From Escherichia phage vB_EcoM-fFiEco06: a stretch of 64,000 bases of DNA. Shown here one piece after another: positions 3,923 through 39,201 of this stretch. Both the position numbers and the translations under genes were made by a program. Positions within the stretch are counted from its first letter, which is position 1, and the number at the start of each line of letters is the position of its first letter. The stretch lies in sequence record NC_054914.1. One strand, given 5' to 3'. The notes under the pieces are model-generated. The model saw only the letters and a program-made list of their open reading frames with translations. It did not search any database and had not been told where the DNA came from.

Positions 3923-5123
3923 ATTTTGTAATAATGTCAAACTGTTCTTTAAAGCAGAAGCTTGAATCTTGATGCTGATACAAAAATTCATATGCTTTTT
4001 CTCGCTCACGGTCATAAAGAGCTCGGTCAGATGACAGTTCTTTAATACGTTCAAACGTTGATTCCATATCATTTTCATCAAACCAAATGATACCGCTATC
4101 ATGCGAGGTCAAAGGAGTATTATCAACACGGAATTTTAAATTTTCGCCAGTAGATTTCCAAAATACCGGAATTGTTCCACATGCACCAAGCTCGAGATGA
4201 GTATATTCTAAAGAACGTTGCAGATATTTTTTATCCAACTTACTCAACTGATAACCAAATCCGGATTTACTCATGCGTTCAAGCATTTCGCTATTTACAT
4301 AACGGTCAAGAATTTGCGTTGGCAAATTAGGAGCAATTTTAATTTGGTCTACTTGATGAAGACGATAATACTCGTATGGAATTCCTTTTTCTTTAATAGG
4401 AATGAACGCTGGAGAACGTTCCAGACCTTCCATAATAGTACTTAGTCCTGCAGGTTTAAGATGTTTTTCATGAAAATCAAACATCTGATAAAAACCTTTC
4501 CATGTAGTCGTACGACCAATCCAACGGTTGATATTCATGTTAATTTCAGAAACATCTTTCCAGTAGGTTGACCGAACCTTCGCAATATCCATAGGAGGCT
4601 GAAAGTTATATACTGTCGGTGCTTCTTCAATATCATCAAACAGAGAAACAGTTTCTGGATACCATTCTTTCATCAGAACTTTATTAAAATCACCATTATC
4701 AGAATGACTAAAAATAACATCAGCTCGACGAACAGTTTCTTCTAATCCCAAATTTCGACGCAAAGAAAGAGAAGAATGGTCATGTTGATAAACTACAACA
4801 CGAACAGAAGGTTTAATGTTATCAATAATTTTTTTATAGTTATTAATAGTGTCTTCTTCAACCGAAGTAGCAGGAACTGAATTGATAATTAGAATATCAC
4901 AATCATTTACCAGCTTAAGTGTTTTATCATATTCTTTTGCCAATAAAACCGGAATTGAAAATGATTTATAATCATGCGCGCAATTACGAGTAAATGATTT
5001 ATCTTTAGCATAAACCAAAGTTACTTCATGACCATTTTTAATAAACCAATCACGTTGCTCGAGTGAGAATTTTGTTACACCACAACCTTCAAGACCTCGA
5101 GCCATAAAAATACATACTTTCAT
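3921..5123 (-). CDS. a-gt: DNA alpha-glucosyltransferase
   Basis: 400 aa; near-identical to T4 alpha-gt as recalled (N-terminus FMARGLEGCGVTKFSLEQRDWFIKNGHEV). Confidence 0.88.
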   Translation of the reverse strand: MKVCIFMARGLEGCGVTKFSLEQRDWFIKNGHEVTLVYAKDKSFTRNCAHDYKSFSIPVLLAKEYDKTLKLVNDCDILIINSVPATSVEEDTINNYKKIIDNIKPSVRVVVYQHDHSSLSLRRNLGLEETVRRADVIFSHSDNGDFNKVLMKEWYPETVSLFDDIEEAPTVYNFQPPMDIAKVRSTYWKDVSEINMNINRWIGRTTTWKGFYQMFDFHEKHLKPAGLSTIMEGLERSPAFIPIKEKGIPYEYYRLHQVDQIKIAPNLPTQILDRYVNSEMLERMSKSGFGYQLSKLDKKYLQRSLEYTHLELGACGTIPVFWKSTGENLKFRVDNTPLTSHDSGIIWFDENDMESTFERIKELSSDRALYDREREKAYEFLYQHQDSSFCFKEQFDIITK

Positions 5124-5149
5124 TTAATATCCTCTTTGTTTTGGTTTAT

Positions 5150-9935: not shown

Positions 9936-11749
9936 TGATGCTTAACCCTATGCATGATTTCTTTATTTTTGCCGAGATTAAATCCGCGTTCGTTCGGATT
10001 TCCCAAATAACCACATGTTCTTCTTATTGTATTCATCTTTTTAGGATCAGTTTCTCCACAAATAGAACAAACAAATCCGTTTTCAGTAGGAGTCATTTCA
10101 TGGGTACTTCTGCATGTAAAACATTTATCCACTGGCATATTAACACCAAAATAATCTAAATGTTGTGCAGCATAATCCCATACGGCCTCAAGACCTTTCA
10201 AGTTATTTTTCATATCAGGAAGTTCAACATAAGAAATGTGACCACCTGTCGCAATGAAATGATATGGCGCTTCACGAGAAATCTTTTCAAACGGAGTAAT
10301 ATTTTCTTCTACTGAGACATGGAAACTGTTAGTGTACCAGCCTTTATCGGTAACATCTTTTACGCTTCCATATTTTTCTGTATCGAGTTTACAGAAGCGA
10401 TAACAAAGGTTTTCAGCAGGAGTCGAATATAAACTAAAAGCAAATCCGGTTCTTTCAGTCCACTGTTTAAGATGAGCATTCATTTTAGTTAAAATTTCTC
10501 GTCCAATATCACGACCGACAAGAATATTCAATTCGTGAATACCAATGTATCCTAAAGACACTGAACTTCTACCGTTTTTAAATAACTCAATTATATCGTC
10601 ATCAGGTTTAAGACGAACCCCAAATGCACCTTCTTGGTAAAGAATAGGAGCAACAGTAGCTTTAACTCCTTTTAAGGAACTAATTCTACACATCAAAGCT
10701 TCAAAACATAAATCCATTCGTTCATTGAACAATTCAACAAATTTCTGTTCATTGAACTGTGTTCCAATATAAGAATCTAACGCGATGCGAGGAAGATTCA
10801 GTGTTACAACACCAAGATTATTACGTCCATCAAGAATTTCATTACCAGTCGAATCTTTCCATACGCCCAAGAAACTACGGCAACCCATTGGAGAAACAGG
10901 AACAGATGAACCAGTGATAGCTTTATTGTTCTTAGCTGAAATAATATCAGGATACATCCTTTTGCTTGCACACTCTAGAGCAAGCTGCTTAATATCATAG
11001 TTCGGATCGTCTTTATAAAGATTAACACCTTCTTCAACGAACATAACAAGCTTAGGGAAAATAGGAGTTATTCCATCACGACCAAGACCTTTAATACGAT
11101 TTTTCAGAATTGCTTTCTGAATCATTCGTTCAGTCCAGTCAGTTCCTGTACCAAATGTAATTGTTACAAAAGGTGTTTGTCCGTTTGAACTAAAGAGAGT
11201 ATTTACTTCATATTCATAAGCTTGGAATGCATCGTATACATCTTTTTCTGTTTTAGATTGAGCATAATTCAACGCATCAGCGATTTGCCATTTTTCTGCA
11301 TCCTCAATATGTTTTGCATAGGTGCGTTTAACATAAGGAGAAAGTACTTTATCGACATTAGCAAATGTAGTTCCGCCATATTGGTGAGAAGCAACCTGTG
11401 CAGTAATTTGTGCCATAATTGCAGTAGCAACACCGATTGATTTAGGAGTTTCAATCTGTGCATTACCAAGCTTAAATCCGTTCTCAAGCATTCCTTTTAA
11501 ATCTACTAAACAACAATTAGTAAATGGAAGAGCAGGGGAATAATCAATATCGTGGAAATGGATAATTCCGCTTTCATGCGCTTTCATAATAAAAGACGGG
11601 ACCATATTTTTGGCAATGTGTTTAGACACAATACCAGCCATAAGGTCCCGTTGAGTTGGAAAAACACGAGAATCTTTATTAGCATTCTCGTTTAAAAGGT
11701 CTTTATTAGTTTTATGAATCAATCCTTCAATTTCTTTTTCAATTGTCAT
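9932..11749 (-). CDS. nrdD: Anaerobic ribonucleoside-triphosphate reductase (glycyl radical enzyme), uninterrupted
   Basis: 605 aa continuous ORF; C-terminal zinc ribbon CFTC...CSIC and glycyl-radical region RRTCGYLG. Confidence 0.92.
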   Translation of the reverse strand: MTIEKEIEGLIHKTNKDLLNENANKDSRVFPTQRDLMAGIVSKHIAKNMVPSFIMKAHESGIIHFHDIDYSPALPFTNCCLVDLKGMLENGFKLGNAQIETPKSIGVATAIMAQITAQVASHQYGGTTFANVDKVLSPYVKRTYAKHIEDAEKWQIADALNYAQSKTEKDVYDAFQAYEYEVNTLFSSNGQTPFVTITFGTGTDWTERMIQKAILKNRIKGLGRDGITPIFPKLVMFVEEGVNLYKDDPNYDIKQLALECASKRMYPDIISAKNNKAITGSSVPVSPMGCRSFLGVWKDSTGNEILDGRNNLGVVTLNLPRIALDSYIGTQFNEQKFVELFNERMDLCFEALMCRISSLKGVKATVAPILYQEGAFGVRLKPDDDIIELFKNGRSSVSLGYIGIHELNILVGRDIGREILTKMNAHLKQWTERTGFAFSLYSTPAENLCYRFCKLDTEKYGSVKDVTDKGWYTNSFHVSVEENITPFEKISREAPYHFIATGGHISYVELPDMKNNLKGLEAVWDYAAQHLDYFGVNMPVDKCFTCRSTHEMTPTENGFVCSICGETDPKKMNTIRRTCGYLGNPNERGFNLGKNKEIMHRVKHQ

Positions 11750-21351: not shown

Positions 21352-22365
21352 TCATTTATAATAACTTCGGTGGTTTTCAAGATAAACCCTCTCAAGGAAG
21401 TCATCCCAAAAACCCATGTCTACTTTTTGCTGCATACCGTTCTTAGAAGCTTCAGTAGATGCTGCTTCTACTTGATCGACCACATCTTCCAAAAACTCTT
21501 GAACCGTTTTAAATGGATGTTTACCCAACTTCACGTCGAGAATAAATGGAGCATCTTGGAGTGGATAAACCAAGTCACCAGTTTTGTAAATTTCCAATAG
21601 TTGGAGTCCACCACGGCAAGCATGACTCAGAGCTTTCCAGTCAATACCTTCATTGGCTTCGGCCTTACGAGCACGTTCACCGTATTCAGCATCTAATTTG
21701 TTCAGTGACTGCTTAAGCTCAATAAGAGAAAGCGTTGTCTGATATTTACGACCCAACACTGTGTAGAACGTCTGTGGGCCTGTTTTCTCATGATTATGGA
21801 ACACCCATTCACAGAATTCGTTTTCTGGAAGACGATGCTTAATATCTTCAACTTTAGTACGACGCTGCTTAATAGAACCATCTTCTTGGTAATCAACCCA
21901 TTGCTCAGGGATTTGATTAACTACTTTCAATACATCACGTAATGCAGCCAAACGAGAACCCTTAACGCCGTATTTAGAAGCTTGCTTACGGACATATCCT
22001 AAATAGGATTTCATGTTAGTCGTATAAAAACGAGAACGGTTGTCTTGAATAAACTTCCACACATCAGGCAAATCAGATTTAACCACTAGTTCAGGTGGAG
22101 TGTGAAGCATATCTAACGCTACAGTTTCACCATCTGCTGCTAATTTAAAGAAATATTTAAGACTGTATAGTTCATGGTCAATATCATCTTTAGTGTTTTT
22201 AGATGATGTGTTGTTAGTGTTTTTACTCATGTGCTCTTTAACATTTCCGATAAGAATATCACGAGCAGGAGGAACAAAGATTTCTTTAAAATCTACATCA
22301 GATTCTGGGGTAGAAGTTCCATAAAGATGACTACCAAAATAGCTTTTCATTACTGTTTTCATCAT
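21352..22365 (-). CDS. Nucleotidyltransferase-fold protein (Pol-beta superfamily-like)
   Basis: 337 aa; N-terminal GSHLYGTSTPESDVD matches the hG[GS]x(9-13)DxD pattern. Confidence 0.5.
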   Translation of the reverse strand: MMKTVMKSYFGSHLYGTSTPESDVDFKEIFVPPARDILIGNVKEHMSKNTNNTSSKNTKDDIDHELYSLKYFFKLAADGETVALDMLHTPPELVVKSDLPDVWKFIQDNRSRFYTTNMKSYLGYVRKQASKYGVKGSRLAALRDVLKVVNQIPEQWVDYQEDGSIKQRRTKVEDIKHRLPENEFCEWVFHNHEKTGPQTFYTVLGRKYQTTLSLIELKQSLNKLDAEYGERARKAEANEGIDWKALSHACRGGLQLLEIYKTGDLVYPLQDAPFILDVKLGKHPFKTVQEFLEDVVDQVEAASTEASKNGMQQKVDMGFWDDFLERVYLENHRSYYK

Positions 22366-22823
22366 TCAGCCTTATATTCAATAACAGGACATACTTTAGC
22401 TTTACGAGCTTTTAAAAATTCAACGATAATCGATTTCTTGGGTTGAATAGGAGGTAAACCTTTATACGCCCTATCAATATTTTCTACGTGTAAAGCATAA
22501 TCCTTTTTCCATTTATAATCTTTATATTTTTCACGCAGTTGTGCAGGAATAACAAATGAACCGATAATAAGTAAAACAAGCAAAATGGCAAGTATAAATG
22601 CTGATGGAATAAGAGTCCATAAACTACCAAAAATAAGCCATTTCTGTATGATTTCTGCGCAGATGATAGTTAGACCTACGAGTATAGTACATCCGAAAAA
22701 AGAAACGAAAAATGTAGGGATAACAATAGACCAAAAGTATGCGCACAGCGTCTTAGGTCGTTGCCATTCATCGTTAAACAATTTGAATAATTTATAGTGC
22801 CAAGAGTTTTCATTAATAATCAT
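22362..22823 (-). CDS. Membrane protein
   Basis: 153 aa with 2-3 hydrophobic helices. Confidence 0.5.
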   Translation of the reverse strand: MIINENSWHYKLFKLFNDEWQRPKTLCAYFWSIVIPTFFVSFFGCTILVGLTIICAEIIQKWLIFGSLWTLIPSAFILAILLVLLIIGSFVIPAQLREKYKDYKWKKDYALHVENIDRAYKGLPPIQPKKSIIVEFLKARKAKVCPVIEYKAE

Positions 22824-22825
22824 AA

Positions 22826-23347
22826 TTATCCTTTCATTGAAGGTGTAACAGTTGTTAAATACTTAATCATAGCTTCAGCTTCTGATTTTGATAATGAAAT
22901 TTCTTCATTGTTTTGACGAATAGAAATAAAATCCGGATGACGGTCACCACCAGCTTTTAAAACACACATATAAGTATCAGTTTCATCTTCAATATCTGAA
23001 ATGATTGAAGCAGTTCCACATGAATGCGGTTTTTGATAAATCAATACAGCTTTTCTTCCGCCATTTGACTGTTCATAAACTTTTAATACATCAAACAAAT
23101 CACTTCTTTTATCAATAGCTAAAATGTTATTTTCATCTTCAATGTTAAATCCTTCGGATACTTCATAAAGTGTCACCCATAAATCGCCAATATCAATAAC
23201 AGCGTTCACTTTTCCATGACTTTCAAGAGCATGACAAATTTTCTTGATTTCGTCATAACTCATTTTAATAATATCATCTCCTTGAATAAGAAAGATGTCA
23301 TTTTTAAATTCAACACGAATTAAACCACTTCCACTTGAAATAAACAT
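22826..23347 (-). CDS. Hypothetical protein, paralog of 23354..23911
   Basis: 173 aa; C-terminal SKSEAEAMIKYLTTVTPSM resembles TKDEAIALKTYLDSVIPTM of the neighbour. Confidence 0.5.
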   Translation of the reverse strand: MFISSGSGLIRVEFKNDIFLIQGDDIIKMSYDEIKKICHALESHGKVNAVIDIGDLWVTLYEVSEGFNIEDENNILAIDKRSDLFDVLKVYEQSNGGRKAVLIYQKPHSCGTASIISDIEDETDTYMCVLKAGGDRHPDFISIRQNNEEISLSKSEAEAMIKYLTTVTPSMKG

Positions 23348-25869: not shown

Positions 25870-26451
25870 CTAACCGAGCTTTTTAGTTAATTCATTCCAA
25901 TGTTTTCTACACAAAGAAACATAAATTTCATCACCAATACAGATTTGATTACCTTCTTTAACTGGTGTTCCATCTTCCATTAATCGAGCTGTCATAATCG
26001 CTTTTTTACCACAATGACAAACTGCTTTTAATTCAATAAGTTTATCTGCAATCGCTAAAAGTTCTTTAGAACCTTCAAATAATTTTCCAGCGAAATCAGT
26101 CCTTAATCCATAAGCCATAACAGGAACATTATATGTATCAACAATTCGACTTAATTGATGCACTTGTTCAGTTTTTAAAAACTGAGCTTCATCTACAAAT
26201 ACGCAATGAATATCTTTTTGTGCTTCAGCCCATTTATAGAACTCGAAAATATCCATATCATCTGTAATAATATTCGCTTCCTGTTTAATTCCAATGCGAG
26301 AAACAACTTCACAGACAGAATCGCGAGTATCAATAGCAGGCTTAAGAACTAATACACTCATTCCACGTTCTTTATAATTATGTGCAGCAGTCAAAAGAGA
26401 AGCAGATTTTCCAGCATTCATTGCTGCATAAGTAAAAATTAAACTCGCCAT
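25870..26451 (-). CDS. tk: Thymidine kinase
   Basis: 193 aa; P-loop AMNAGKS and C-terminal CHCGKKA...C zinc motif. Confidence 0.92.
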   Translation of the reverse strand: MASLIFTYAAMNAGKSASLLTAAHNYKERGMSVLVLKPAIDTRDSVCEVVSRIGIKQEANIITDDMDIFEFYKWAEAQKDIHCVFVDEAQFLKTEQVHQLSRIVDTYNVPVMAYGLRTDFAGKLFEGSKELLAIADKLIELKAVCHCGKKAIMTARLMEDGTPVKEGNQICIGDEIYVSLCRKHWNELTKKLG

Positions 26452-26460
26452 ATCACCTTC

Positions 26461-26646
26461 TTAAAGCGTATTCACATAAGCTATTAATTCGTTTTCTTTC
26501 TTATCAAACCGATCAGCAAATTCTTCCTGCTGTTCTGGAGATAGCGGGCCGTATTCATCATAAAAGGTGTTTGCTTCTGTATGCTCATCTAGAAGTTCAT
26601 GGATAAGCTCAAACAATTTATCTTTTTGTTCTTTACTCAGACTCAT
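26461..26646 (-). CDS. Hypothetical small acidic protein (tk.1 position)
   Basis: 61 aa. Confidence 0.45.
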   Translation of the reverse strand: MSLSKEQKDKLFELIHELLDEHTEANTFYDEYGPLSPEQQEEFADRFDKKENELIAYVNTL

Positions 26647-26816
26647 ATATTAATTTCCAGGAGTTTTAAAATAATTCGCTTTTGCTTAAATATTTCCATA
26701 GTTAAATGACCAGTATCTTTTTGACCGATTCCAATGGCAAAACCTTTATTGACAGCGAGTTCAATTAAATTATCAAGCTCACGTAACACTTCATACTGTA
26801 ACTCAAAACTATTCAT
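26643..26816 (-). CDS. Small ORF (about 57 aa)
   Basis: Hand-found ORF MNSFELQYEVLRELDNLIEL...; ATGA start/stop overlaps with both neighbours. Confidence 0.3.
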   Translation of the reverse strand: MNSFELQYEVLRELDNLIELAVNKGFAIGIGQKDTGHLTMEIFKQKRIILKLLEINI

Positions 26817-27025
26817 TTCGGTTTACCTTCTTTAACGAAATCTGGATAAGGATAAAATCCCGAATAAAATCCTTCACCTTTATGATTGATGCATCCTTTA
26901 TTAGAACAATAGCACCAATAATCGAAATCACAAGCCATTTCATCGTTGCATAAAGCAAAAACAACTGGCCATTTACACTTTTCACAATGGGCATTTTTAA
27001 GAATACTAGTTTGGCTCATAACCAT
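26813..27025 (-). CDS. Cys-rich small protein (probable zinc binding)
   Basis: 70 aa with CEKCK...C...CDFDYWCYC...C. Confidence 0.45.
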   Translation of the reverse strand: MVMSQTSILKNAHCEKCKWPVVFALCNDEMACDFDYWCYCSNKGCINHKGEGFYSGFYPYPDFVKEGKPK

Positions 27026-27243
27026 GTAACCTTTAAGCAGTATTCTTCTACATGCTGTTTACGACCTTTCTTATCAATAAAGGTATATTCAACGAATGTT
27101 CCAATGTAGTCTTTATCTACATCATGCGGACTATTAATTGGACATTTAGTACGGCAAATGCGTTCCCATTGACGAATAATTACTGCCTTATTCTTTGGGT
27201 CATATGGATGTGGATAATGTATATTCATAATAACGGTTCCCAA
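27016..27243 (-). CDS. Hypothetical small protein
   Basis: 75 aa. Confidence 0.4.
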   Translation of the reverse strand: MGTVIMNIHYPHPYDPKNKAVIIRQWERICRTKCPINSPHDVDKDYIGTFVEYTFIDKKGRKQHVEEYCLKVTWL

Positions 27244-27692
27244 TCAACAATCACAATTTCTAATTTAGAGGAATATGTATCTAAAATCCCCTCAATAATA
27301 TCCCAGTTCCCTTTACCTATGCCTGCACCAATCCTAGGCATATAGATTGTAGGTTTAATCAGTTTATTTTCACCAAACTCATTTAATTCTAACATACAAT
27401 TCATTAAAGCGGAATACTCAAAATTTGGCCCTGGTTGAAATTGAGTATAAAGGTTGAAGCAATACGCTTTATGAGTCCTAAAGTATTTTTCATAGACTGA
27501 GTAAGAACCGAGTTTAGTTACATCACCCCATTCAGTCTGTAATTTATCAGCTTCCAAAATTTTAGGGAAAGCTTTGGTTAATTGACCCGCTACGCCTGAA
27601 CCCATAGTATGAAAACAATTGCATCCATGCGCAATATTTTTACCTTCAGCGAAAAGGGCGACAATATCGCCCTTGATATATTTTACAATCAT
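27225..27692 (-). CDS. Macro-domain protein (ADP-ribose binding/processing)
   Basis: 155 aa; GDIVALFAEGKNIAHGCNCFHTMGSGVAGQL matches macro-domain glycine-rich motifs. Confidence 0.65.
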   Translation of the reverse strand: MIVKYIKGDIVALFAEGKNIAHGCNCFHTMGSGVAGQLTKAFPKILEADKLQTEWGDVTKLGSYSVYEKYFRTHKAYCFNLYTQFQPGPNFEYSALMNCMLELNEFGENKLIKPTIYMPRIGAGIGKGNWDIIEGILDTYSSKLEIVIVDWEPLL

Positions 27693-28030
27693 CTAGTACT
27701 CAATCCTCGATTATAAGAATCTACCAAACGGTCAACCATTGAATGACAAGCGGCTTTATCTTTCTCCTCCGCAACTGAACATTCTAAGGTATTCCACTTT
27801 TTAGCATATCGTTTTAATAATGTATCGTTTTTGTATCTGCTTGATTTATCTCTTTCTCCGTCTTTATATGCATATATTAATTTCTGCGCAAATTCAGCTT
27901 GGCATGCTTTATTTTTCCCACAATAATCTGCCGCAGTGCGATTTACATATTCTCTAATTTCAGTATATGATGTATCTGCTAACGCAGAAAATGAAATTAA
28001 TCCTATACATAAAACCAAAATTTTAGTCAT
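27689..28030 (-). CDS. vs: Secreted/periplasmic small protein (vs position)
   Basis: 113 aa with N-terminal signal peptide; position between the macro-domain gene and vs.1 as in T4. Confidence 0.4.
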   Translation of the reverse strand: MTKILVLCIGLISFSALADTSYTEIREYVNRTAADYCGKNKACQAEFAQKLIYAYKDGERDKSSRYKNDTLLKRYAKKWNTLECSVAEEKDKAACHSMVDRLVDSYNRGLSTR

Positions 28031-28568
28031 TTACTATTTCCAAAAGTTTATTATTTTTAAGGTAATTAGCCTTTTCTAGGACTTCAGAAGCATATTTAGA
28101 ACCTGCTTTAACATTCCATCCCGAATTATAAGATGATATTGCTTTTCTTATATCGCCCTTATGTATATTTAACCAATAAGAAAGTTCAATGTACGCCCAG
28201 GAAGCTGAATTGGATCGTTTATTCAACATTCTTTTTATTTCAGCATCGGTCATATTATAACCAAGTTCCTTAACTCTTGCTCGCATAGTAGGCAAATAAT
28301 TTTGGAACATTCCATAAGCGTGATGCTTTGGTTTAGATTTTAAATTAACTCCGCCAGAGCTTTCTTGCCATAAAATGGCTGCCATTATATGGCCTAATCC
28401 GCTCTTGTGGATGTTTTTGTGTGTTTTATATTTTCCATCCTTAGAAAATTGTTCCCCGAATTGATACGCGTAACGCATGTTATCGAGTTGGACATTACTG
28501 AAAGTATGCTCGGAGCTATGTGCCATCATTGAAATGGCCAATAGACCAGCGAGTAGTGCTTTTCTCAT
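28023..28568 (-). CDS. Secreted protein, possible lytic-transglycosylase-like (vs.1 position)
   Basis: 181 aa with signal peptide MRKALLAGLLAISMMAHS. Confidence 0.45.
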   Translation of the reverse strand: MRKALLAGLLAISMMAHSSEHTFSNVQLDNMRYAYQFGEQFSKDGKYKTHKNIHKSGLGHIMAAILWQESSGGVNLKSKPKHHAYGMFQNYLPTMRARVKELGYNMTDAEIKRMLNKRSNSASWAYIELSYWLNIHKGDIRKAISSYNSGWNVKAGSKYASEVLEKANYLKNNKLLEIVND

Positions 28569-28575
28569 GCTTACC

Positions 28576-29037
28576 TCATTGAGTTTTAATTACTGCTTTA
28601 GAAGCCTTTCCTGGTAAACGACGACTGTTGATAATTGCCATCCTGCATTGAAGTGACGGGTTTTTGAACTTCTCATTAGGCTTACAAACCGTAAATCCAA
28701 GCCAAAGATTTCCATCTGTGATTTCTAAACGTCCAGGACGATATTCAACCCCATCAATAAAATCCTCGTCAATGTCAGGACGCGGAGGCATACTCAGGAA
28801 TTCATTAACTTCTAAAACATGGTCTTTTATTTTATGGAATAATTCAAAAACATATGTCTCATCAATCTCCCGTTGAATTGCACGATCAAGAAGATGTTGA
28901 GAATATTTTAGATGAAACGATGAGACTCCTGCTGCTTTTGATGCCTCACGAATCTCATTGTTAATTTGACGAAACTCCGACTCAAAATGACGACGAAGCT
29001 TATTTCGACGGATAAAAACTTCTGTATTGATAGTCAT
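28576..29037 (-). CDS. regB: Endoribonuclease RegB
   Basis: 153 aa; position and sequence match T4 RegB as recalled. Confidence 0.85.
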   Translation of the reverse strand: MTINTEVFIRRNKLRRHFESEFRQINNEIREASKAAGVSSFHLKYSQHLLDRAIQREIDETYVFELFHKIKDHVLEVNEFLSMPPRPDIDEDFIDGVEYRPGRLEITDGNLWLGFTVCKPNEKFKNPSLQCRMAIINSRRLPGKASKAVIKTQ

Positions 29038-29063: not shown

Positions 29064-29094
29064 AATTATACCACAGTCAAGAGGAAAAGTAAAC
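29064..29094 (-). promoter_or_regulatory. T4-type early promoter upstream of regB
   Basis: Minus strand GTTTAC, 18-nt spacer, TGTGGTATAATT. Confidence 0.6.
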
Positions 29095-31651: not shown

Positions 31652-31673
31652 TTTATCCCTCCAAGTAACTGTG

Positions 31674-36776: not shown

Positions 36777-36852
36777 TGGTCGAGGCAGTAGGGATCGAAC
36801 CTACGACCCAGGACTTAGAAGGTCCTTGCTCTTCCTTCTGAGCTATGCCTCG
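36777..36852 (-). tRNA. tRNA-Arg (anticodon UCU)
   Basis: Hand-folded cloverleaf: acceptor CGAGGCA/UGCCUCG, anticodon loop CUUCUAA, T-arm GGTTCGATCC, encoded CCA. Confidence 0.8.
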
Positions 36853-36856
36853 TATT

Positions 36857-36931
36857 TGGCGGACGTGATAGGATTCGAACCTATAACCAATCGCTTAACA
36901 GGCGATCGCTCTGCCATTGAGCTACACATCC
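36857..36931 (-). tRNA. tRNA-Asn (anticodon GUU)
   Basis: Acceptor GGATGTG/CACGTCC, anticodon stem ATCGC/GCGAT with loop CTGTTAA, T-loop TTCGAAT, CCA. Confidence 0.7.
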
Positions 36932-36935
36932 AAAT

Positions 36936-37022
36936 TGGTGGGGAGTGGTGGAGTCGAACCACCCGAGTCGCAATGACAATGAATTTACAGTCCACACCGC
37001 TACCTCTACGGGATAACTCCCC
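36936..37022 (-). tRNA. tRNA-Tyr (anticodon GUA), long variable arm
   Basis: 87 nt; acceptor GGGGAGT/ACTCCCC, anticodon loop CTGTAAA, T-arm GGTGGTTCGACTCCACC, CCA. Confidence 0.65.
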
Positions 37023-37031
37023 AAATTAATT

Positions 37032-37106
37032 TGGTGGCCCTGGGTGGAATTGAACCACCATCTGGCGATTATGAGTCGCTTGCTTGAACCTTCCAGCTAC
37101 AGGGCC
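37032..37106 (-). tRNA. tRNA-Ile/Met (anticodon CAU)
   Basis: Acceptor GGCCCTG/CAGGGCC, anticodon loop CTCATAA, CCA. Confidence 0.75.
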
Positions 37107-38600: not shown

Positions 38601-38633
38601 GTAATAGTATCACTACCCTATCTAAAAGTAAAC
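38601..38633 (-). promoter_or_regulatory. T4-type early promoter with 9-bp inverted repeat around the -10
   Basis: GATAGGGTA ... TACCCTATC flanks the -10 ATACTATTA. Confidence 0.55.
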
Positions 38634-38867
38634 TTATTTTTTACGAAAAATTGATTTATTTTCTGCTGCCCATTTTTCAATAACTGCAGCAGGACCAGTA
38701 ACAACAATTTTATCACCGTAATCTTCTGCGGCGAGTTGACCGAAATTATCTAATGCATCACGAAGAACTCCATGAGGCATTTCACCCATTTTATCTTTCT
38801 TGCCAGTGTAAATAAACTCAACTTTTACATCAGCAGTTTCAGCAATAAATTCTTGGTAAGTTTTCAT
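38634..38867 (-). CDS. Internal protein (ip-like) with canonical capsid-targeting sequence
   Basis: Start taken at the second Met: MKTYQEFIAE matches the T4 capsid-targeting sequence as recalled; own early promoter. Confidence 0.55.
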   Translation of the reverse strand: MKTYQEFIAETADVKVEFIYTGKKDKMGEMPHGVLRDALDNFGQLAAEDYGDKIVVTGPAAVIEKWAAENKSIFRKK

Positions 38868-38898
38868 TTTGATTTCCATTTGGTTTTGTTTTGATAGG

Positions 38899-38931
38899 GT
38901 AATAGTATCACAACTAAAACCCTATGTAAAC
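38899..38931 (-). promoter_or_regulatory. T4-type early promoter with inverted repeat around the -10
   Basis: ATAGGGT ... ACCCTAT flanks the -10; drives the ip-like gene at 38634-38867. Confidence 0.55.
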
Positions 38932-38943
38932 AACTTTGTGAAA

Positions 38944-39201
38944 TTATTTTAAATCTTCTAATCGTTTCTTCATCTTAGAGCCATTTTTAGCAATTTCTCC
39001 TGCATCGGAGCATAATGCTAAAAGTGCTTTAACTTTAGTTTGGTCTCCTTTAAAAGATGAAGGATCGACCGCAGCAGCAAGTTCTTTAATACGAGAGAAA
39101 AGACGCTCAGCTTCAGCTAAAGCCATTCCAAGCTTTACTTCCATACCGTGGGAAGATTCAGTGATAGTAGTTTTTGTAGCAAACTCTTTGAAAGTTTTCA
39201 T
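38944..39201 (-). CDS. Internal protein (ip-like) with capsid-targeting-like N-terminus
   Basis: 85 aa; MKTFKEFATKTTITE with an I-x-E cleavage-type motif; own early promoter. Confidence 0.5.
   Translation of the reverse strand: MKTFKEFATKTTITESSHGMEVKLGMALAEAERLFSRIKELAAAVDPSSFKGDQTKVKALLALCSDAGEIAKNGSKMKKRLEDLK

Follow-up and report, generated by a model that had tools for sequence, protein, structure and literature searches.

How does a phage of the T4 type go on replicating in a host whose DarTG2 system marks its DNA, and by what chemistry might the mark be taken off again? The question is raised by tk.4, a small gene in the 64,000-nucleotide stretch analysed here (the window, meaning the whole of that stretch). 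A preliminary description of the same DNA had placed a 155-residue ORF at 27225-27692, called it a macro-domain protein of the tk-regB cluster and quoted a glycine-rich motif from it. All of this stands: the frame is listed on the minus strand with an ATG start, Pfam Macro scores above its cut-off with tk and regB among the neighbours, and 27579-27638 on the minus strand translates exactly to NIAHGCNCFHTMGSGVAGQL (Table 1). The product is identical to T4 Tk.4 (NP_049723.1, also T4 ORF 60.5) at 155 of 155 residues (100% identity), and the order vs, tk.4, tk.3 is that of T4, which makes the gene an ortholog by sequence and by position. ATGA overlaps like those at both ends of tk.4 are a usual feature of T4 early genes whose translation is coupled, and the overlap with vs suggests such coupling here. 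In T4, transcription of the regB-vs.1-vs-tk.4-tk.3 string precedes that of the late genes. The sigma-70-like match just upstream of regB is a weak candidate for an early promoter of this co-oriented string; it is to be read as a consensus match only, because the scan of the region gave 18 promoter-like matches against 20.0 +/- 3.8 in shuffles, which is no excess. The 70-residue DUF7202 frame downstream of tk.4 was considered as an insertion relative to T4 and rejected, since blastn against T4 and the protein alignment identify it as T4 tk.3. A terminator-like hairpin at 27654-27674 (plus strand), inside and antisense to tk.4, is regarded as chance.

Table 1. Features of the tk.4 locus, in window coordinates
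Feature	Position	Strand	Description
tk	25870-26451		thymidine kinase gene; Pfam TK, 6e-61
tk.3	27016-27228	-	70 aa, DUF7202; product 100% identical to T4 Tk.3
tk.4-tk.3 overlap	27225..27228	-	ATGA; tk.4 stop and tk.3 ATG; from sequence
tk.4 (adfM) CDS	27225..27692	-	ATG start, 155 aa; single macro domain and no other domain (ORF list and Pfam)
Loop-2 motif	27303..27338	-	PRIGAGIGKGNW; aa 119-130; second glycine-rich diphosphate-binding loop
N80-L-Y-T-Q84 motif	27441..27455	-	end of central strand; Q84 at the catalytic-lysine position of DarG and TARG1
Loop-1 motif	27579..27638	-	NIAHGCNCFHTMGSGVAGQL; aa 19-38; H22-G23-C24-N25 and G31-S32-G33 phosphate-binding turn
vs-tk.4 overlap	27689..27692	-	ATGA; vs stop and tk.4 start; tcat on the plus strand
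vs	27689-28030		between tk.4 and regB
vs.1	28023-28568		SLT-domain protein; between tk.4 and regB
regB	28576-29037		Pfam REGB_T4, 6e-69
Sigma-70-like promoter match	29065..29093	-	TTTACT-17-TATAAT with upstream TG; 10/12 match; just upstream of regB

The window comes from a T4-like Tequatrovirus, a relative of T4 and not T4 itself, with about 95% DNA identity around tk.4. Over 2.7 kb around the gene its sequence is 100% identical to that of Escherichia phage vB_EcoM-fHoEco02; this stretch matches 725 phage records, nearly all of them Tequatrovirus (at least 80% of the stretch is covered in 521), and tblastn with the Tk.4 protein finds matches in 2,749 phage records. Between tk and tk.3 (26451-27015) the window has no blastn match to the tk.1/tk.2 region of T4; where T4 carries these two DUF7438 paralogues, the window has one DUF7438 frame (26461-26646), a 57-residue frame without a Pfam match (26643-26816) and a 70-residue Phage_zn_bind frame (PF23895; 26813-27025). 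At 31655-31662 the T4 genes ipII and ipIII (T4 65359-66454, about 1.1 kb) are missing, the denV and e flanks being joined almost directly, and at 38613-39167 two small ORFs (38634-38879 and 38944-39201) stand in place of the T4 ipI stretch. Their products begin MKTYQEFIAE... and MKTFKEFATK..., starts that we take to resemble the leader by which T4 internal proteins are targeted to the capsid; they probably represent alternative internal proteins, ipI being known as a hypervariable locus. The window has no counterpart of the T4 homing endonucleases mobB, mobC, mobD and segB or of the nrdD I-TevII intron (positions 5114-5139, 9935, 11211-11214, 22366-23329 and 36822-37087); the mobD position holds a 153-residue ORF predicted to be membrane-like (22362-22823) and a 173-residue ORF (22826-23347).

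What is already on record about the function of tk.4? A match to an A1pp/macro domain was reported from CDD in 2006 (PMC1524935), and the RefSeq label of the T4 protein is 'phosphatase; contains A1pp phosphatase motif'. T4 lacking both adfA and adfN stayed resistant to DarTG2, and a further factor was therefore predicted (PMC11825919). The genetic evidence for tk.4 comes from a preprint describing HIDEN-SEQ (10.1101/2025.11.20.689424): of the genes covered by a T4 transposon library, tk.4 alone came out as significant after growth on a DarTG2 host, and T4 with a clean tk.4 deletion was sensitised to DarTG2. The gene, which T4 does not need on E. coli K-12 lacking DarTG2, was renamed adfM. The same preprint found Tk.4 structurally similar to M. 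tuberculosis DarG and considered that removal of ADP-ribose by the enzyme "seems likely". The suggestion in the preliminary description that this macrodomain reverses ADP-ribosylation by a DarT-like toxin of the host is thus borne out by a published screen and knockout concerning the identical T4 protein. The gene, its macro domain and its role against DarTG2 had all been described before; the role having been published for the identical protein, there is no new biology in it. A literature search for Tk.4 biochemistry found no assay of the T4 protein.

Is Tk.4 then a macrodomain of the DarG kind? The fold itself is clear. Pfam Macro (PF01661) matches at 27.7 bits against a gathering cut-off of 22, with residues 22-132 on profile positions 2-113 of 118, and phmmer against PDB sequences returns macrodomains only. 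The AlphaFold2 model, built from a 63-sequence alignment (mean pLDDT 95.6, pTM 0.90), is predicted to have the three-layer alpha/beta/alpha fold with a mixed central sheet and superposes on solved macrodomains; Foldseek retrieves TARG1, Poa1p, BT1257 and DarG with it, each at probability 1.00 and with TM 0.72-0.82. Tk.4 is a stand-alone macrodomain of 155 residues, and the ranking of the structure comparison (Table 2) places it in the ALC1-like class of TARG1, DarG, Poa1p and SCO6735, human TARG1 (OARD1) and yeast Poa1p being top Foldseek matches from that class. The DarG profiles of NCBIfam and PADLOC match its macro part as well (E 2.5e-7 and 1.3e-9). Over the full length, however, the NCBIfam profile (NF048014) gives only 30.3 bits, below its cut-off of 250, and just positions 2-146 of 338 are aligned: Tk.4 lacks the C-terminal DarT-binding domain of DarG. 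The operon partner of DarG is missing too, there being no darT beside tk.4, whose neighbours are vs, vs.1, regB, tk.3 and tk.

Table 2. Tk.4 against reference macrodomains
Protein	Residue at the Q84 position	Fold comparison	hhalign probability (Tk.4 family)
BT1257 (2afc)	Gln	18.5	98.5%
SCO6735	Gln (Gln85)		98.4%
TARG1	Lys (K84)	16.8	98.2%
Poa1p	Ser	17.7	98.1%
M. tuberculosis DarG	Lys (K80)	17.6	97.8%
T. aquaticus DarG	Lys (K80)		97.7%
PhiKZ gp104 (AdfM)	Lys (FPTK)		96.4%
T. africanus DarTG		17.0	

The next question is how much of the pocket has been kept. Conservation was read from an alignment of 119 homologues with reference macrodomains, and equivalent positions in the references from profile-sequence hhalign. 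The residue set that binds ADP-ribose (an N-terminal Asp, the loop-1 Asn and two glycine-rich loops) is present. D9 is Asp or Asn in all 119 homologues. In loop 1, G33 and A35 are invariant (119/119), G23, N25 and C26 are each found in 118 of the 119, H22 in 114 and C24 in 113; N25 aligns with N23 of PhiKZ AdfM, and the H22/N25 pair with H24/N27 of SCO6735. In loop 2, P119, I121, G122 and G124 are invariant (119/119) and W130 is kept in 117/119. This loop aligns with PRIGCGLAGGxW of BT1257 and SCO6735; T4 Tk.4 itself reads GIGKGN there, against GIAGGD in the consensus of its own family. At the end of the central strand Q84 and Y82 are invariant (119/119) and N80 is found in 118/119. The family also has near-invariant residues of its own in D49 (118/119; Tyr in DarG, BT1257 and Poa1p), in C24 and C26 of HGCNC and in Y82.

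It is at Q84 that Tk.4 departs from DarG. In the hhalign alignments this glutamine occupies the column of the catalytic K80 of both DarGs (T. aquaticus, 5m31/5m3e; M. tuberculosis, 5m3i), of the TARG1 lysine and of the FPTK lysine of PhiKZ AdfM, and the same column holds Gln in SCO6735 and BT1257 (Table 2). The second catalytic residue of TARG1, D125, is replaced as well, by G126. An alignment of catalytic residues with DarG had been put forward earlier as a check on the macro-domain claim; the ADP-ribose-binding residues come through it intact, and the catalytic lysine of DarG and TARG1 does not, its place being taken by Gln as in SCO6735. In the literature searched we found no statement that the catalytic site of Tk.4 is not DarG-like.

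Can a macrodomain with Gln in place of Lys act on DNA? The substitution is explained by SCO6735 of Streptomyces coelicolor (PDB 5e3b), which cleaves thymidine-linked ADPr from single-stranded DNA and loses its activity on mutation of the glutamine (Q85A/E); a water-mediated mechanism involving the Val25 backbone and Gln85 has been proposed for it (PMC9411070, PMC9967889). The Bacteroides protein BT1257 (PDB 2fg1/2afc) is closely homologous to SCO6735 (E 6.5e-51). Tk.4 has in common with both the Gln at the catalytic-Lys position, the H-x-C-N motif (H22-G23-C24-N25 on H24-V25-C26-N27 in the SCO6735 alignment) and the PRIG-x-G-x-x-G-x-W loop. The likeness is not complete, as identity is only about 25-29% and the near-invariant D49, Y82 and C26 belong to the Tk.4 family and not to SCO6735/BT1257. 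SCO6735 also has a longer mobile loop with Lys89/Lys94, proposed as the basis of its efficiency on DNA, and Tk.4 is without it: hhalign leaves a gap of 5-6 residues, with QFQPGPN in Tk.4 against QHGMKTGSKGAP. Moreover, SCO6735 is a cellular, DNA-damage-inducible gene and not a phage counter-defence gene.

It seems likely that tk.4/adfM (anti-DarT factor, macrodomain) hydrolyses thymidine-ADPr DNA by a glutamine chemistry like that of SCO6735 and in this way protects T4 from DarTG2. On infection of a DarTG2 host, DarT2 would attach ADP-ribose to single-stranded phage DNA, at N3 of thymidine, and replication would be blocked. Tk.4 would then grip the ADP-ribose moiety through an adenine contact of D9, through N25 and through its two glycine-rich loops, and hydrolyse the N-glycosidic bond between thymine and ribose; ADP-ribose would be freed, the DNA restored and replication resumed. 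Catalysis is probably not of the Lys-dependent type of DarG and TARG1. It is likelier to be of the water-mediated Gln type proposed for S. coelicolor SCO6735, in which the Gln (Q84 in Tk.4) would position the distal ribose, and the water would be placed by a backbone carbonyl of the H-x-C-N turn. On the strength of the alignment and the predicted model, we infer that the protection is enzymatic, that thymidine-ADPr DNA is the substrate and that the mechanism is SCO6735-like. That phage macrodomains are able to clear DarT2 marks is known from PhiKZ gp104, also named AdfM, a stand-alone phage macrodomain countering DarTG2, which strips these marks from TNTC ssDNA in vitro and is less active as N23A (Cell Rep 2026, PMC13309987). 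TARG1 also reverses thymidine-ADPr.

Could Tk.4 instead be mainly a small-molecule phosphatase like Poa1p, clearing ADP-ribose-1''-phosphate or the cyclic phosphate from RNA repair or NAD-based immune signalling? The RefSeq label would say so, but it goes back to the CDD match of 2006 (PMC1524935) and thus to the name of a domain, not to an assay. Iyer et al. have also argued for a possible preference of phage macro domains for soluble ADPr derivatives. The two proteins share an H-x-C-N-C motif, and H22 and T29 of Tk.4 align with H23 and S30 of Poa1p, the residues mutated in PDB 6lfs and 6lft; against this, the counterpart of the invariant Tk.4 Gln is Ser in Poa1p, which also carries a long insertion ahead of loop 2. 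Gene neighbourhood offers a further hint: two divergent T4-like contigs carry the homologue close to the RNA-repair genes Rnl1 and/or PNKP. The homologues concerned are labelled as bacterial MAG proteins (P0072 and P0118; Bacilli, Culicoidibacterales), and both are on T4-like phage contigs (L002 1-2397 and L003 6001-8941) with Rnl1 and/or PNKP and dCMP deaminase. L002 has DUF4326 and T4-type RNA ligase 1 close to the macro gene, PNKP about 2.5 kb downstream and also a Dda-like helicase; in L003, Rnl1 is missing and a DNA ligase is present. Adjacency counts for little in genomes as mosaic as the T4-like ones, however, and Pnkp-Rnl1 repair in T4 is not known to leave a 2'-phosphate on which a Tpt1-type step could act. 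The one phenotype reported for tk.4 is specific to DarTG2 (10.1101/2025.11.20.689424), and the target of DarT2 is DNA. We regard a mainly Poa1p-like role as improbable. An "orphan antitoxin" origin of Tk.4 gained no support when cellular homologues beside darT were sought: P0072 and P0118 are both on phage contigs and show no toxin linkage.

Might Tk.4 protect the phage without any hydrolysis, by inhibiting DarT2 as an antitoxin mimic or by binding the ADP-ribosylated DNA? The catalytically dead mutants SCO6735 Q85A, DarG K80A and TARG1 K84A all lower DarT activity in vitro, SCO6735 most strongly, and as dead SCO6735 inhibits DarT directly, Tk.4 may make some non-hydrolytic contribution. That this would be the whole of the protection is hard to credit. 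Tk.4 lacks the C-terminal DarT-binding domain of DarG, and binding of modified DNA would not restore replication. N25, Q84 and the glycine-rich loops are, moreover, kept across the 119 homologues, down to about 35% identity, a pattern that speaks more for a conserved catalytic pocket than for a surface made to bind one toxin.

T4 also encodes three ADP-ribosyltransferases of its own (Alt, ModA and ModB), and the preliminary description had Tk.4 processing their products as another option; these enzymes target arginine and we know of no macrodomain that cleaves arginine-ADPr, so that reversal or editing of their marks on host proteins or RNA-protein conjugates finds no support and is, because of this chemistry, highly improbable. 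Macro domains and ARTs do co-occur in phage genomes (Iyer et al.), and SCO6735 acts also on Asp/Glu-linked protein ADPr, but no alt or mod gene adjoins tk.4 in the window (vs and tk.3 do), and the gene can be spared on E. coli K-12 when DarTG2 is absent (10.1101/2025.11.20.689424).

Hydrolysis of thymidine-ADPr by a Gln-type site being the preferred reading, how does the T4 protein relate to that of PhiKZ? The name AdfM was given independently to T4 Tk.4 (preprint, Nov 2025) and to PhiKZ gp104 (Cell Rep, Apr 2026), and the latter report states that no macrodomain Adf had previously been reported (PMC13309987). The gp104 protein has retained the FPTK lysine, and its match to DarG has an E of 1e-24, whereas Tk.4 matches DarG only at 5e-4 and has Gln; between the two AdfMs BLASTP aligns just 23 residues. 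They therefore belong to different branches: as judged from their sequences, T4 AdfM is of the Gln-type, SCO6735/BT1257-like branch and PhiKZ AdfM of the Lys-type DarG branch. The proteins differ in their setting too, gp104 being imported into the phage nucleus and T4 having no such nucleus. This sequence-based classification of T4 AdfM as Gln-type is the sole increment of the present analysis over known work. A broader proposal, to which we would give slightly less than an even chance, is that the macrodomains which phages have recruited against DarT2 are of two kinds that differ in mechanism, a Lys-type one derived from DarG (PhiKZ) and a Gln-type one like SCO6735/BT1257 (T4, and widespread).

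What does this mean for T4 and its relatives? tk.4 explains the resistance of T4 to DarTG2 and would offer a clear case of a phage "eraser" enzyme undoing a bacterial defence mark on its DNA. The branch to which T4 AdfM is assigned matters for naming, for the choice of catalytically dead controls (Q84A/N25A and not a Lys mutant) and for predicting the substrate range. If Tk.4 does use a Lys-independent, water-mediated route, it may share the dual activity of SCO6735 on DNA and on Asp/Glu-linked protein ADPr. In that case its neutralising action could extend to more than one defence toxin of the ADP-ribosylating type, and it would be unaffected by inhibitors and by toxin variants aimed at Lys chemistry.
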